A stretch of DNA of 64,000 bases. Source: a virus. The stretch is from positions 593-64,592 of the IMG/VR virus record IMGVR_UViG_3300040771_000047. One strand, written 5' to 3'. Under the pieces are notes generated by a model that saw nothing but the letters and a program-made list of their open reading frames with translations, ran no database searches and had not been told where the DNA came from. A program made the position numbers and the translations under genes. Shown here piece after piece: positions 42,981-50,232 of this stretch (position 1 is the stretch's first letter; each line of letters opens with the position of its first letter).

Positions 42981-44027
42981 ATGAAACAATATGGATTTAT
43001 CTCCGACAAGTTAAGTAGAAGAGGTTTTATTAAAAAGGAAGATATTCTTGCTGTTATAACCCAAGAGGAGATTTTCAAGTTAGTTTTTAAAGAACTTCCT
43101 ATAGAATTTAAATATGTAAAGTCCCCTTTTCGAGAAGACACTAATCCTGGATGTTGGTTTCATTATAATATTGATGGTAAATTAAGATTTACAGATTTTG
43201 GTAATCCTGCCGTAATCAATGGCATATCTATGGGTAACATAGATTGCTTTGATTGCGTACAGGTTTACTTTAAACTTGCAAACTTTTATCTTACACTAGA
43301 GTTTATCTTTAATCACTTAATCAAAGGAAAAAATGTTGACACTGACAATAGAATAGAAATTCAGGTTCAAAAGAATGAAAAGAAGGCTGTAAAAATATTA
43401 ATTGAACCTAGACTATTTAATTCAAAAGATGCTGCCTATTGGACTTCTTATGGAGTTAGTAAAGCACAATTAATAGAGGATAAGGTTTTCCCAATTTCAA
43501 GGTACCATGCTTTAAATACTAAATTTGGTAACTTTAGTTCTAGTTGTCCTGATATATCCTATGCCTACACAGAGTTCAAAGAAGGGAGGAAAAAACTATA
43601 CTTCCCCCAGAAGGAAGGCAATAAAAGATTTCTTACTACCTGCAGTAAAGAAGATGTAGGTGGTACTACTTCCTTATCTTATGGTAAACAATTAATCATT
43701 TCTAAAGCCTATAAAGATTATAGAGTACTGAAGAATGAAGGTAAAAATGTCAAGTGGCTCCAAAATGAAGGCATGGTTCCTAGCTTAGATAACTTAACTG
43801 AGTTGGTTAAAGATTTCAAGAACGTTATTGTTTTCTTTGACAATGATGAGACAGGTATTAAAGCTTCCAAGGACATTACAGACATTATTAACTCAATTTC
43901 TAGAGGTAAGGCTAAATCTTTACATCTTCCTGAAAGATTGCTTAGTGAAAAGATTTCTGACCCTTCAGATTTATTCTTAAGGAGAGGTAAAGCATCATTA
44001 ACTAACTTTTTAAATACTTTTACATAA
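42981..44027 (+). CDS. dnaG: DNA primase (Toprim)
   Basis: KSPFREDTNPGC zinc-finger-like region, ISKAYKD, FFDNDETG Toprim DxD, ISDPSD. Confidence 0.85.
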   Translation: MKQYGFISDKLSRRGFIKKEDILAVITQEEIFKLVFKELPIEFKYVKSPFREDTNPGCWFHYNIDGKLRFTDFGNPAVINGISMGNIDCFDCVQVYFKLANFYLTLEFIFNHLIKGKNVDTDNRIEIQVQKNEKKAVKILIEPRLFNSKDAAYWTSYGVSKAQLIEDKVFPISRYHALNTKFGNFSSSCPDISYAYTEFKEGRKKLYFPQKEGNKRFLTTCSKEDVGGTTSLSYGKQLIISKAYKDYRVLKNEGKNVKWLQNEGMVPSLDNLTELVKDFKNVIVFFDNDETGIKASKDITDIINSISRGKAKSLHLPERLLSEKISDPSDLFLRRGKASLTNFLNTFT

Positions 44028-44756
44028 ATGAACCCCTTTGAACAATTTCATCCTTCTTGGAAACCTATTATTGGGTTACTACATCAAGGACTTTTAGCAG
44101 AGCTTAGTGCAGACATTCTGCCTAACTGCGTGTATTACCCACAAAAGGAAAACATCTTTAGAGTTTTCAGAATGCCTTTAGATAAGATTAAGGTAGTTAT
44201 ATTAGGTCAAGACCCTTATCACGGACCCGGCCAAGCAAATGGTTTATGTTTTGCAGTAGATGGACTTAGCAGAGTTCCTCCTAGTTTAGAGATAATATCT
44301 AAAGAACTGACTAATCAAGGATTGAAAGAAAGTCATAATTATGACACTCCTTGGAAGACTTTAGCACATTGGGAAAAACAAGGTGTATTCTTGCTAAACA
44401 CTGCATTAACAGTTGAATCAACTAAACCTGGAAGTCATATAAAGTACTGGGAAGAGTTTATTAGTAAAGTAATTACCTTTATTGCTCATAACCAACCCTG
44501 TATGTGGTTACTTTGGGGTAAGAAAGCTCAATCTTACACTACTCAAATACCACATAAGACTATCTTTGACGTGAAGAACTATAGTAAAGAAACTATAGAA
44601 GGAATACCTACTAGCCCTTATTTTAACTATATTTTGAAAGCAGCTCATCCTGCTGCAGAATGCTATCAAAGCAATGCAGGATTTTTAGGATGCAATCACT
44701 TTTATTATGTTAACAAAATCTTGACGAAAAACAATCAAGTAAAAATCAATTGGTAA
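44028..44756 (+). CDS. ung: Uracil-DNA glycosylase family 1
   Basis: VVILGQDPYHGPGQANGLCF, VPPSL, QGVFLLNTALTV, AAHPAA. Confidence 0.92.
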   Translation: MNPFEQFHPSWKPIIGLLHQGLLAELSADILPNCVYYPQKENIFRVFRMPLDKIKVVILGQDPYHGPGQANGLCFAVDGLSRVPPSLEIISKELTNQGLKESHNYDTPWKTLAHWEKQGVFLLNTALTVESTKPGSHIKYWEEFISKVITFIAHNQPCMWLLWGKKAQSYTTQIPHKTIFDVKNYSKETIEGIPTSPYFNYILKAAHPAAECYQSNAGFLGCNHFYYVNKILTKNNQVKINW

Positions 44757-44775: not shown

Positions 44776-45642
44776 ATGTCAGAATCAAATACAAATGCTG
44801 TAGAGAATACTCCAGTTTCAAGAACTATTACTATTTATGCAACAAGAGGTAACTCAGAGCCTGTTGACATTATTTCATCTGCAGTTACTTGGGGAGATTT
44901 TATTCCTGAAGTAAAGAAAGCAGGTTACTCTGTAGATAAAGTGTTATGTACAGAAAGCCATACAAGAATGGATTTAGTTAACAAATTAGCTATCTTACCT
45001 CTTGTAGACTTTACAATCTTTATTAGAAATAAAGAAACTAAGTCAGGTGCAACAGAACTAAGCTACAAACAACTTAGAGCTGCTATTGCTGGATTTATGT
45101 CTGAAGATTTTAACAGAGCAAAAGCTCACTTTGGTAACTACACTACTAAAACTACAGTTCTCTTAAGAGAATTGCATGCTTCTTATTCTCCTGCTGTTGT
45201 AGAAGAAGAGCAAGTGGAAATGAATGAAGTAGAAACTAATGTTGCTGATGTAGTTGAATCTGTTAAAGATTCTAAAGTAATCTACATTACTAACTCTGGT
45301 AGAATTGAAAAGATTTCAGCTTTACTTGCAGGTGTTACAGCTTGTACTACAAATGAAGAAGTTCTTGAAAGAATTGAAATCATTGAAGGAGAGATTGAAG
45401 GTCTTAGAGAAGCTGTTAATTCAGATGATACAGAAATTCTTATGGAAGCTGAAACAGCTCCTGTAGCAGAGGTTCCTGTCTTTGATGCTGAAGCTGAAGG
45501 GAGAGCTCAAGCAGTTGCAGAAGCTAAAGCTAAAGAAGAAGCTAAGATGGCTGAAGAAGCTGAATTAGCTAGACTTGCAGCAGTAGCTAAGCAAATCAGA
45601 AAAGATGCTTTGGCTTCTCAAGCTAGAGAGTTAGGTTTATAG
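44776..45642 (+). CDS. Ubiquitin-like (beta-grasp) domain precursor with C-terminal helical/acidic extension
   Basis: First ~91 aa show a beta-beta-alpha-beta-beta pattern ending ...FIRNKETKSG; heads an E2-JAB-E1 gene run. Fold call is inference. Confidence 0.6.
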   Translation: MSESNTNAVENTPVSRTITIYATRGNSEPVDIISSAVTWGDFIPEVKKAGYSVDKVLCTESHTRMDLVNKLAILPLVDFTIFIRNKETKSGATELSYKQLRAAIAGFMSEDFNRAKAHFGNYTTKTTVLLRELHASYSPAVVEEEQVEMNEVETNVADVVESVKDSKVIYITNSGRIEKISALLAGVTACTTNEEVLERIEIIEGEIEGLREAVNSDDTEILMEAETAPVAEVPVFDAEAEGRAQAVAEAKAKEEAKMAEEAELARLAAVAKQIRKDALASQARELGL

Positions 45643-45667
45643 TAATTTGCAATTTATTTATATAATC

Positions 45668-45698
45668 AAAAGTGAGAGCAGAAATGTTCTCACTTTTT
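45668..45698 (+). terminator. Intrinsic terminator between Ubl and E2-like genes
   Basis: AAAAGTGAGAGCA-GAAA-TGTTCTCACTTTTT. Confidence 0.75.
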
Positions 45699-45710
45699 TA
45701 TTTTTTAACT

Positions 45711-46931
45711 ATGAATATAACATCAAATTTTAATTACAATGAAAGAAGGCTAGGTCTTCCTTTAGATAGAATAGTACATTCTGCTAGACTTTTGTCCTTA
45801 ACTAAGGATAAGAAATGGTTACATAAAATTATAGATAGAGGTTTAATACGAACTTGGGATGAAGGTATTATTGTAGAAAGTGATTCACAAAAAGATAGAC
45901 TTAAAGCTTTTATTGACATAATGATAGAAGGTTTTTCTAGAAGATATGGAAACAATTGGGATGTACACTTATCAAAAGTAAACAATAGACAGTATACCAT
46001 AAATTTCTTTACCATATTTCCTAGTACTACTATCACTAATAGAGATGGAAACAGTCATGTTATTAAGGATTTAATAGTTCTTTTTCCTATTGCTTGCTCA
46101 ACGGATGATAACTTTTATATCACTAGAATACAAGGTGGTAGAGCTACTTATTATCAGAAAGAGCTAGATAATCAATATTCTCACAGCCATTTAAGAAGTA
46201 GTGTTTCTGGGATTTCAGTAGATGAGCCTTTCTATACAAATGACTTTTGTATTGGAGCAGGTGATTTATCTTTTCTAGAAGGTGTATTACGTAATAATTT
46301 TAATGTCAGAGACTTAGAAGCTTATCTTTATGAAATAGATGCTACAATTCAATGGGAAAGTATTGAAGGTACTCCTTATAAACATATTAGAGACCTTACT
46401 TCTACTAGAAGTAGTATTGTAAGAGAAGGTTCTTATAGTGTTTCAGGTTTTACTAGCAATTTCTCTAATGATTTAGATGTAGACTTCTATATTAGTAACA
46501 ATACCTATAAGATAAAGTTCAATAGTACTTTTAAAAGTTTTATAAGAAGTATTTTAGACCAAAATCTTAGTGAATATGGTTCATTACGACATGACATACT
46601 ATGTGTTTATAATCCTGTAACTAGAAGGTATTACAGAGCAGAAAGTTCACAAACACAAGAAGGCTACATTCCAGACATTCGTACCTATGGAGGAGAAAAT
46701 GCTTACACTATTTACAATGGTCAGAAAAAGTATTTTTCTATCAAAGCTACCCCAATAAGAGCAAATGCTCCACAAGAAGTTTATATTATTTACCCTAAAT
46801 TCTTAAAAGATGTCCACACCCAATTTGAAAAATTACTCCACGAAAAAACCGTTAGACAAAGTGCAATTAGCAAATATCATTCCGCTGAATATCAGTCTTC
46901 CTATTCTACACAAAATTCAGTTTCTTTGTAA
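45711..46931 (+). CDS. Prokaryotic E2-like (UBC-fold) protein
   Basis: GGRATY..YSHSHL...DFCIG.G with candidate catalytic Cys (46248-50); ATG 45711 preferred because 45672 lies inside the terminator. Confidence 0.55.
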   Translation: MNITSNFNYNERRLGLPLDRIVHSARLLSLTKDKKWLHKIIDRGLIRTWDEGIIVESDSQKDRLKAFIDIMIEGFSRRYGNNWDVHLSKVNNRQYTINFFTIFPSTTITNRDGNSHVIKDLIVLFPIACSTDDNFYITRIQGGRATYYQKELDNQYSHSHLRSSVSGISVDEPFYTNDFCIGAGDLSFLEGVLRNNFNVRDLEAYLYEIDATIQWESIEGTPYKHIRDLTSTRSSIVREGSYSVSGFTSNFSNDLDVDFYISNNTYKIKFNSTFKSFIRSILDQNLSEYGSLRHDILCVYNPVTRRYYRAESSQTQEGYIPDIRTYGGENAYTIYNGQKKYFSIKATPIRANAPQEVYIIYPKFLKDVHTQFEKLLHEKTVRQSAISKYHSAEYQSSYSTQNSVSL

Positions 46932-48655: not shown

Positions 48656-49663
48656 ATGTTAGAAATACATACTGAGACATATGGAAGTTTTGATAGGGAT
48701 AACAGTAAGCCTGCTAATCTTGTTAGTAATAACTTCTTTCCTCTTATATCTATTAATTGCTTAAGAATGGAAGGTAATCAAGAAGAAAATTTTACGCAGA
48801 CTTATTACAAACCTAGCATAACATCTTCAGTTAGAACTAAGGCTTCTTCTAGTAAAAACATTTTACATAGTTTAAATGACGAAGCTCAAGTCACAAAGTA
48901 TCTTTTTGGAGATAAAGTGTATTATATTAACAAAGGATTGGTAACAGACTCATTGGGTAAAATTTTACTTATACTTACTATTAAAAAAGAAGTTTTAGTA
49001 GAGTACGATTACTTAAAAAGAAATACTTTTCATCACACTCATGCTAGATTTAGCTATGATAACTTTGTTTTGTTTATTTCTAGTGAGATGTCCTGTAACC
49101 CTTTACATTCAGTATTTTACAGAAGAATACAAAAAAATTACTTGAGTTTTTGCTACGAAAAAGGAATGGAGGTACGTACAGTACCTTCTTCTGTAATAGA
49201 AAAGAATACCTTTGCAAATTCACTTAACCTAAGATTTAACTCTATTACAGAGTTAGACTACCACCTTAGAAATGAAGTAAAGTATTTCTTAAATGCTGAT
49301 GAAGGAGAATCTGTAACGCGTGCTCTACAAATTAATATACCACCTGTAGACATGGAAGAAGATGTGGAAGTACTGAATGAAGCATCTAATGTGTCTAATG
49401 TAGAAGCTGTACAAGAAAGAATATTAGAGTTACAAGATTTAGCTACTGCTTCAGTTGGAGTACCTGCTTCATATCTTAATGACAGTACTGATAGTGTAAC
49501 TTCTGGCTATATTTCAGGAATTGATTATTACAATAATCAAGTAACTACTTCTTCTTCAATAAGTACAGATAGTATAATGGCTATGTCAATGGCTATGAAT
49601 ACTGCAGTTAGAACACCTACAGTTGAGCCTGTAGTTGTGGATGATGATATTATAGAATTTTAA
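48656..49663 (+). CDS. Hypothetical protein with low-complexity acidic C-terminus
   Basis: 335 aa, 3 nt after the E1 gene. Confidence 0.65.
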   Translation: MLEIHTETYGSFDRDNSKPANLVSNNFFPLISINCLRMEGNQEENFTQTYYKPSITSSVRTKASSSKNILHSLNDEAQVTKYLFGDKVYYINKGLVTDSLGKILLILTIKKEVLVEYDYLKRNTFHHTHARFSYDNFVLFISSEMSCNPLHSVFYRRIQKNYLSFCYEKGMEVRTVPSSVIEKNTFANSLNLRFNSITELDYHLRNEVKYFLNADEGESVTRALQINIPPVDMEEDVEVLNEASNVSNVEAVQERILELQDLATASVGVPASYLNDSTDSVTSGYISGIDYYNNQVTTSSSISTDSIMAMSMAMNTAVRTPTVEPVVVDDDIIEF

Positions 49664-49704
49664 GAATAAAGGTATTGTAAGTTTATAATTTGTTAATAAG
49701 TAGA

Positions 49705-50232
49705 ATGACTTACATGGGAATAGGAAAAATAAATAAGATGATGGGGAGTGAAGCAGAAATTATGTACTCTTTATTCTTTAAGGATTTAGGCTTCAGAAAC
49801 TGTATACCTTCTCGTCATGTTAGTGCTAAGCATGATAATGCTAAAATAGATTTAATGAATATACCTTTTAATGTACAAGTTAAAGCAGGTAAACAAACAA
49901 ACATGAATCCTGGGAAGGAGTTGTTGTCAATGCAACATTGTATTGACCTCATGTTTGATGATGACGATGCTATAACATTAAAACCTAACATACTGATTCA
50001 TTACATTACAGTAGAAAAGGACAAAGAAAGGTTGCCTGAACATGAGATAGTTTATATGTCATTACAGCAATATGATTACTGGAGAAGTATGGGTTCAAAA
50101 CTAGAATATCTTGGAATGAGAGAATTTAGGTTTGAACTAAACTCTGAATTTAAGACCATTGTGTGTGTGACTTTAGAAGTTTTTAAAAAAGAAATCATAA
50201 TAAAACATTATCAGAATGGTAATAATAACTAA
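49705..50232 (+). CDS. PD-(D/E)xK-fold nuclease, possible junction resolvase
   Basis: E...SR..S...D..KIDL...NVQVK pattern; start uncertain (TTG 49690 or ATG 49705). Confidence 0.55.
   Translation: MTYMGIGKINKMMGSEAEIMYSLFFKDLGFRNCIPSRHVSAKHDNAKIDLMNIPFNVQVKAGKQTNMNPGKELLSMQHCIDLMFDDDDAITLKPNILIHYITVEKDKERLPEHEIVYMSLQQYDYWRSMGSKLEYLGMREFRFELNSEFKTIVCVTLEVFKKEIIIKHYQNGNNN

Follow-up and report, generated by a model that had tools for sequence, protein, structure and literature searches.

The DNA analyzed here comprises 64,000 nucleotides (positions 593 to 64,592) of the IMG/VR virus record IMGVR_UViG_3300040771_000047, hereafter the window, and is a piece of a crAss-like or Fipvunavirus-like phage genome. 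Among isolates, it is closest to the Fipvunavirus phages of Flavobacterium psychrophilum (e.g., FpV4), which share its gene order. We focused on an open reading frame (ORF) in which a ubiquitin-like (Ubl) domain is followed in frame by a long C-terminal extension, on the three genes that come after it, which code for an E2-like protein, a JAMM/MPN+ (JAB) metallopeptidase and a small ThiF-type E1 adenylating enzyme, and on the intrinsic terminator that separates the Ubl gene from these enzyme genes (Table 1). The genes around the Ubl ORF are all encoded on the plus strand and together form a replication module. The window shares the gene order Ubl, E2-like, JAMM, E1 with 57-59 related loci, wherever a locus reaches far enough, and this synteny includes FpV4 and the Bacteroides phage crAss001, whose gp79, gp78, gp77, and gp76 constitute the same cassette (NC_049977.1, 81394-85804; the E1, gp76, is longer, with 383 aa). 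In public records the cassette genes are labelled "hypothetical", "metalloprotease domain", or "thiamine biosynthesis".

Table 1. Genes and features of the Ubl cassette and its surroundings, in positions of the window
Feature	Position	Strand	Basis or remark
DnaB-like helicase	upstream in the replication module	+	
ATPase	after the DnaB-like helicase in the replication module	+	
Primase	42981-44027	+	
Uracil-DNA glycosylase (UDG)	44028-44756	+	Pfam UDG 3.5e-11
Ubl precursor ORF, 288 aa	44776-45642	+	stop TAG 45640-45642
Ubl (beta-grasp) domain, residues 1-91, ends K-E-T-K-S-G	44776-45048	+	AlphaFold2 model, structural matches, conserved G91
Predicted processing site G91/A92	45046-45051	+	invariant Gly, flexible model, stand-alone homologues
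C-terminal extension ("cargo"), 197 aa	45049-45642	+	model and alignment; no match to a known family
Intrinsic terminator	45668-45707	+	13-bp stem, GAAA loop (45668-45697), T-run to 45707
E2-like protein, 406 aa	45711-46931	+	from ATG 45711; UBC-like core ~56-233, then C-terminal domain and long helix
JAMM/MPN+ (JAB) metallopeptidase, 393 aa	46810-47991	+	motif E...HxHx7Sx2D
Small ThiF-type E1 adenylating enzyme, 225 aa	47975-48652	+	Pfam ThiF 7.7e-16; invariant Cys172

The ubiquitin-like domain and its conserved glycine

Residue 91 of the precursor is a glycine (codon GGT, 45046-45048), after which 197 residues remain. In an AlphaFold2 model of the precursor built on 28 sequences, residues 16-85 adopt the beta-beta-alpha-beta-beta ubiquitin fold with a predicted local distance difference test (pLDDT) of ~90, and residues 90-92 are flexible (pLDDT < 50). 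Taken at its full extent, the confidently modelled fold spans residues 11-90. An exhaustive structural comparison with VIA-align returned ubiquitin-fold proteins in all of its top 50 rows (Z 7.3-8.5, root-mean-square deviation 2.0-2.6 Å, ~70 residues), the top matches including UBX, MoaD, ubiquitin, FAT10, ISG15, SUMO, and NEDD8, and Foldseek gave TMt values of 0.6-0.69 against UBX, archaeal ubiquitin, and ISG15. Model residues 16-89 superpose on residues 1-75 of ubiquitin, which places G91 at most one residue from the terminal glycine of ubiquitin (G76). The domain thus has a ubiquitin-type beta-grasp fold, and its flexible tail ends in a conserved Gly, in the position that matches ubiquitin G76; at the sequence level, a profile of the domain searched against PDB sequences gave chance-level matches only, i.e., without relationship to ubiquitin.

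Conservation of this glycine was examined at two depths. Among close homologues (27-83% identity overall) G91 is invariant in 28 out of 28, as the last residue of the motif K-[EQK]-[TV]-K-[SA]-G. A search of 1.84 billion proteins with a Ubl-domain profile ending at the Gly gave 1547 cluster representatives (E ≤ 1e-3; clusters defined at 50% identity), and the Gly was present at the profile end in 166 of the 167 retrieved representatives that extend to it. The residue that follows is variable and either small or hydrophobic (Ala in 39%, then Leu, Ser, Ile, Gly, and Val).

In addition, the architecture of the locus was compared in 74 IMG/VR loci, 59 of which are distinct. The extension is longer than 60 residues in 49 of the distinct loci and 21-22 residues long in two, and the remaining eight encode the domain alone. 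These eight stand-alone Ubls (77-106 aa) stop precisely one residue past the Gly (…KSGK, …KSGR, …KSGE, …KSGF, …KSGI), and their genes precede the same E2-like, JAMM, and E1 genes. Stop-codon recoding is known in crAss-like phages; as a source of the stand-alone forms it was ruled out by TAA stops in six of the eight genes and by further in-frame stops beyond them in most loci. Since G91 is invariant and the stand-alone relatives end with the Gly plus one residue, the conserved end of the domain would also be the mature C-terminus, a reading that the comparison of homologues supports, and the 197-residue extension would be removed. An E1 needs a beta-grasp tail whose C-terminal carboxylate is free, and the window protein would therefore require a cut after G91. 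From these alignments, we consider it likely that the 288-aa product is a pro-protein cut after its invariant glycine.

Five of the eight stand-alone loci carry an ORF of 46-61 aa between the Ubl gene and the terminator (L047, 6268-6420; L056, 6201-6356; L068, 6240-6380; L072, 6289-6438; L076, 6243-6428). Four of the five products are acidic, and in three of these loci the ATG of the small ORF overlaps the Ubl stop as TAATG. Their arrangement is suggestive of a split version of the fusion; phmmer found no similarity between the small ORFs and the window extension or among the small ORFs themselves, and a split-off "cargo" originating from gene fission is thus not demonstrated.

The C-terminal extension and the enzymes of the cassette

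AlphaFold2 divides the extension into three helices (residues 97-136), a disordered stretch (142-168), a helical pair (173-217), a second disordered stretch (219-233), and a long helix (238-285). It contains 33 Ala and 32 Glu and has a net charge of -18. An assignment of residues 97-136 to a SAP/HeH motif was dropped, as no tool supported it. In the FpV4-like group, N121 and T123 are invariant and Y122, L130, and L133 near-invariant, the motif NVADVVESV (~158-166) is conserved between the disordered linkers, and the proteins share the C-terminal motif LAxEAxELG[LY], with the window helix 238-285 ending in LAxxARELGL. The same plan is found in crAss001 gp79 (…KKIKSG/AMSRAEAYNAIK…FGKNFTMCKTQDLIDLL…, followed by a Lys/Glu-rich linker and a helical end). 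Judged from its alignment, the extension is clearly under selection within the FpV4-like group. Across the wider family its length ranges from 1 to ~300 residues, its sequence is not kept between subgroups, and the C-termini of the full-length proteins vary (L, Y, F, R, K). Searches of the extension against Pfam, NCBIfam, PADLOC, and the ESM Atlas assigned it to no family (the match to Pfam S17e, E 0.093, was below threshold), and a search for free-standing homologues yielded nothing beyond the fusions themselves and a truncated copy of the window gene.

That the extension acts as a functional second protein is possible, with chances that we put a little under even. It could also be no more than a pro-region acting as a cap or timer: the modifier would stay inert as long as the scarce JAMM had not removed the extension, which would then be discarded. 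The variable length and the unrelated sequences of the subgroups would fit such a role, as would the disordered or Ala/Glu/Lys-rich nature of much of the extension and the outcome of the searches for families and free-standing homologues, and the natural tails of the bacterial modifier BilA (1-9 residues) act as simple caps (PMC10557695). Against it, the FpV4-like and crAss001-like extensions keep N121, T123, Y122, L130, L133, and the two motifs, conserved positions that together with the well-modelled helices imply selection beyond that expected of a plug, and more than 60 residues are retained in 49 of the 59 distinct loci. On these grounds we regard the pro-region as the less probable fate of the extension, albeit one that deserves to be taken seriously.

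The protein predicted to make the cut carries a complete JAMM motif (E47…H111-x-H113-x7-S121-x2-D124) that is invariant in 37 sequences and by which we classify it as a JAMM/MPN+ protein; it has a weak, generic match to the PADLOC JAB model (E 0.013), and no match was obtained against PDB sequences. When the JAMM domain (30-235) was modelled in complex with the Ubl (11-105), the ipSAE values were 0.14/0.16, where the mark is 0.32, an outcome that counts neither for nor against binding. In the small E1, the residues of the nucleotide (ATP) site and Cys172 are invariant, and its best solved relatives in the PDB are the adenylation domains of the NEDD8, SUMO, and ubiquitin E1s. Homologues of this E1 also occur in ~227-kb jumbo phages of Erwinia and Xanthomonas (30% identity). 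For the 406-aa protein, the model (pLDDT 86) shows a core made of a helix, a four-strand meander, a loop and helices, and His160 and Cys180 are invariant in the alignment; this topology and the two residues fit a UBC fold with a catalytic Cys preceded by a His-containing loop. UBC/UEV/RWD folds prevail in its VIA-align list at a modest Z of 4-5.5, its Foldseek comparison was not significant, and neither hidden Markov models of sequence families nor PDB sequences produced a match; because Z reaches only these values, we call it E2-like and not an E2. The invariant cysteines of the E2-like protein (Cys180) and of the E1 (Cys172) suggest thioester chemistry.

The ORFs of the E2-like protein and the JAMM share 122 nt (46810-46931) in different frames, and the median overlap in 47 related loci is likewise -122 nt when the first ATG is counted as the start. 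This is either a conserved dual-coding stretch or an indication that the true JAMM start lies further downstream. Two more proteins are encoded 3' of the E1 (48656-49663, 335 aa; 49690-50232, ~175 aa); they are without family matches, are found in 36 related loci, and may be members of the cassette, e.g., as target, adaptor or additional peptidase.

The sequence-only reading of this DNA had ended the Ubl at Gly91 (GGT 45046-48), had named conservation of the Gly position as a check, and had seen a helical domain and an acidic Ala/Glu-rich coil in frame behind it. The codon as read, the modelled fold, the homologues and the helical segments and charge described above all agree with this. It had further proposed that JAB cleavage after G91 both activates the modifier and frees a second protein; G91 as the domain end holds, given its invariance, the stand-alone forms and the intact JAMM motif, but a functional second protein of 197 residues could not be carried over at the same strength, considering the variable length, the lack of a known family and the lack of a free-standing gene.

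The terminator between the Ubl gene and the enzyme genes

Downstream of the Ubl ORF lies a hairpin (45668-45697; AAAAGUGAGAGCA-GAAA-UGUUCUCACUUUU) followed by the T-run UUAUUUUUU. Its folding energy is -16.9 kcal/mol (z -3.7), none of 200 shuffled sequences folded equally well, and with 13 stem pairs it tops the 11 terminator-like sites located in 40-52 kb. The locus thus has the stem-loop and U-tract at a gene 3' end that define an intrinsic terminator. The strong GAAA-capped terminator that had been read from the letters at 45668-98 was in this way confirmed by folding, with its end placed one base too far, and the E2-JAB-E1 set from which it was said to separate the Ubl gene does follow downstream, its first member being termed E2-like here.

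A hairpin with a T-run occurs at the same junction in FpV4 (where the loop is GAAA as well), in three Logan contigs and in crAss001, each time with a different stem, and over all loci the Ubl to E2-like junction has a terminator in 63 of 71. We surveyed the junctions of the module in non-redundant loci, counting hairpins of -10 kcal/mol or better followed by a T-run. Terminators were present at the Ubl to E2-like junction in 43 of 48 loci, at the UDG to Ubl junction in one of 39, and in none of the 31-47 loci available for each of the junctions primase to UDG, E2-like to JAMM, JAMM to E1, and E1 to the next gene; the junction between the gene after E1 and the following gene, which has a similar gap length, also lacked them (0/28). 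The stems at homologous junctions are unrelated in sequence, reach -13 to -25 kcal/mol and precede long T-runs, and in the stand-alone-Ubl loci the terminator follows the small ORF, directly before the E2-like gene. We have hardly any doubt that the terminator is real and position-specific, with its structure conserved and its sequence not.

The position of the hairpin also bears on the start of the E2-like gene. The program-made ORF list places this start at GTG 45672, within the hairpin, as is the ATG at 45684; the likely start is ATG 45711, the first ATG past the terminator and 3 bases beyond the T-run. Annotations of related phages may contain the same hairpin-internal start as an artefact. 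The distance from the T-run to the next start codon is thus 3 nt in the window, and it is ~20 nt in FpV4. The Bacteroidota -7 motif TAnnTTTG was searched for between 80 nt before the Ubl stop and the E2-like start and was found in 0 of 48 loci (~6 expected by chance). As a promoter of their own would not fit into this gap and the host-type -7 motif is missing, the enzyme genes seem to depend on read-through, which would make the terminator an attenuator. Attenuation by partial termination is the simplest reading of the junction, and the one towards which we lean.

Published RNA-seq data for crAss001, in which gp79 (KKIKSG/A and a similar extension) is followed by a terminator of -25 to -30 kcal/mol, allow a view of the homologous junction. 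Expression of all four cassette genes sets in within the interval from 10 to 30 min (PMC8375218, suppl. 2). For the interval from 30 to 60 min, the log2 changes in the two replicates are -0.16 / +0.57 for gp80 and -1.30 / -0.46 for gp79 (the Ubl fusion), both upstream of the terminator, and -3.15 / -2.26 for gp78 (E2-like), -2.44 / -1.49 for gp77 (JAMM), and -1.68 / -1.03 for gp76 (E1), all downstream of it (PMC8375218, suppl. 2). As the table holds fold changes between time points in another phage, these values show a discontinuity at the homologous terminator and no absolute ratio across it. In the window itself, the effective codon number of the Ubl gene ranks third from the bottom among 54 ORFs (31.5, compared with a median of 36.8), a weak indication of high expression.

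The hairpin could instead act as a full stop, or chiefly as a stabiliser of the 3' end of the helicase-primase-UDG-Ubl transcript, with the enzymes expressed from an unrecognised phage promoter or through regulated antitermination. The strength of the stems and the long T-runs speak for this, the type of promoter used for the middle genes of crAss-like phages is not established, and the faster fall of the crAss001 downstream genes relative to gp79 between 30 and 60 min fits time-dependent antitermination or mRNA stability. The space between T-run and start codon is so short, however, that a promoter must sit upstream of the hairpin and its transcripts read through it; the host -7 motif is missing in all of the 48 loci, and in crAss001 both sides of the terminator switch on within the same 10-30 min interval. 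We therefore judge a full stop or mere stabiliser to be unlikely.

Proposed mechanism, related systems and significance

As an account of the whole locus we favor, on balance, a pro-protein modifier whose release and dosage are set by the cassette itself. This phage Ubl system (Ubl, E2-like, JAMM, and small E1) would produce its modifier as the 288-aa pro-protein, and the cassette JAMM would cut it between G91 and A92, exposing the Gly carboxylate for adenylation by the E1 and releasing the acidic, largely helical remainder of 197 residues in equimolar amount. We infer that only part of the transcripts would pass the terminator into the E2-like, JAMM, and E1 genes, and the pro-modifier would therefore be made in excess over its enzymes. 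A bolder version, which we put forward tentatively and with considerable doubt, is that Crassvirales and related Bacteroidota phages, among them the crAss-like phages abundant in the human gut, run their own Ubl tagging in DNA replication, in which the JAMM frees the helical, acidic C-terminal part as a second effector one-for-one, the attenuator sets a large excess of pro-tag, and activation by the scarce peptidase is the rate-setting step.

Several observations weigh against this account. The extension is partly disordered, of low complexity and without a recognisable family, no free-standing homologue of it was found, and the small ORFs behind the stand-alone Ubls were not detectably similar to it. 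The structural scores on which the E2 assignment depends are modest (Z up to 5.5). Absence of TAnnTTTG is no proof of an absent promoter, as the type of middle-gene promoter in these phages is not established, and the RNA-seq comparison consists of fold changes from another phage. Furthermore, among the 150 best-scoring representatives no complete protein lacks an extension, so that this subgroup could, with low probability, hold a permanently fused Ubl-domain protein. In that case the protein would be of the UBX/Rad23 type and remain uncleaved, its beta-grasp docking on the E1, the E2-like protein or the JAMM while these act on another substrate; all near relatives being fusions and non-conjugated UBX domains being among the top structural matches would agree with this, but we think it improbable, as stand-alone forms next to the same enzyme genes end with the Gly plus one residue, the Gly is invariant at a flexible domain end, we noticed no further beta-grasp candidate among the cassette proteins, and the full-length proteins, whose C-termini lack conservation (L, Y, F, R, K), would hence be poor E1 substrates.

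The pro-protein reading has parallels in bacterial conjugation systems. In the Bil system (bacterial ISG15-like; Chambers et al.), the JAMM peptidase BilC cleaves BilA at the Gly97-Ala98 bond and accepts an artificial BilA-GFP fusion as a substrate as well (PMC10557695). BilABCD and the phage cassette have the same order of Ubl, E2, JAMM, and E1 and a Ubl in which a single conserved Gly is followed by Ala. They differ in the tail of the Ubl (at most 9 residues in BilA, 197 in the phage protein), in the E1 (three-domain IAD-AAD-CYS in BilD, a single ThiF domain of 225 aa in the phage), and in the carrier, Bil being a host defence and the cassette being phage-carried. Of the PADLOC models for BilA-D, only BilD gave a match (E 0.046), and none was obtained for the Ubl or the E2-like protein. 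In Type I Bub (Ye et al.), Ubl and E2 are naturally fused in BubAB, which BubCD (JAMM-E1) cleaves after Gly229 (PMC11601596). As proposed for the phage protein, the Bub Ubl is the N-terminal part of a pre-protein cut by its own JAMM right after a conserved Gly (G229), cleavage frees a modifier plus a functional C-terminal protein (a feature of Bub), and in both systems the E1 is small, of the homodimer type, and without the eukaryotic multi-domain layout. However, Bub frees its E2, whereas the phage E2-like protein has a gene of its own and the released part would be an acidic helical protein; JAB and E1 are fused in Bub and encoded by separate, overlapping genes in the phage; Bub works by way of Ser oxyesters and has an E1 without a catalytic Cys, whereas in the phage a Cys and not a Ser is invariant at the putative catalytic positions of the E2-like protein and the E1; and Bub is bacterial and linked to defence regulators, whereas the phage cassette lies in a replication module. 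The cassette thus resembles both Bil and Type I Bub but belongs to neither.

More distant parallels exist for the fusion and for the terminator. Eukaryotic ubiquitin fusions (eL40, eS31) supply modifier and an unrelated protein in equimolar amounts and are split by a deubiquitinase after the terminal Gly. The phage precursor would likewise join an N-terminal modifier to an unrelated C-terminal protein; its cargo, however, is not ribosomal, it has a single Gly where ubiquitin has Gly-Gly, and there is no sequence relationship between them. The T7 terminator T-phi, located after the capsid gene, is an internal attenuator that follows an abundant product, with read-through feeding the downstream genes. 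Both are intrinsic terminators right after a gene that is, or in the phage would be, needed in bulk, with the difference that the RNA polymerase transcribing the middle genes of the phage studied here is not established and attenuation is inferred. Among phage proteins, the beta-grasp of the lambda/T1 tail protein I was predicted by Iyer, Burroughs and Aravind (2006) to be released by JAB at its last Gly (PMC1779556). Tail protein I, considered together with the JAB-NlpC protein K, is similar in being a phage beta-grasp fused to a C-terminal globular domain, and differs by acting in tail assembly without E1 or E2, by having a Gly-rich linker in place of a single invariant Gly, and by its release being a prediction only. 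A literature search of incomplete coverage found no paper that describes the phage cassette. JAB processing of Ubl precursors is already known (BilA, BubAB); new are the carrier, i.e., the replication module of a phage, the conserved non-enzymatic extension and the conserved putative attenuator.

To our knowledge, work on complete prokaryotic Ubl conjugation sets has up to now dealt with them as defences of bacteria against phages (Bil, Bub, CBASS Cap2/Cap3). In the window, it is the phage that carries the putative conjugation set, within its replication module. The Ubl family is very large, with its 1547 clusters at 50% identity, and includes crAss001, DAC15/17, and the Flavobacterium psychrophilum phages. 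Re-annotation of genes now labelled "hypothetical" or "thiamine biosynthesis" is useful by itself, and the conserved terminator offers a handle on stoichiometry. Should the tag be attached to proteins of the host or of the phage, a bacterial virus would be using Ubl modification as an offensive means or in its own assembly or replication.

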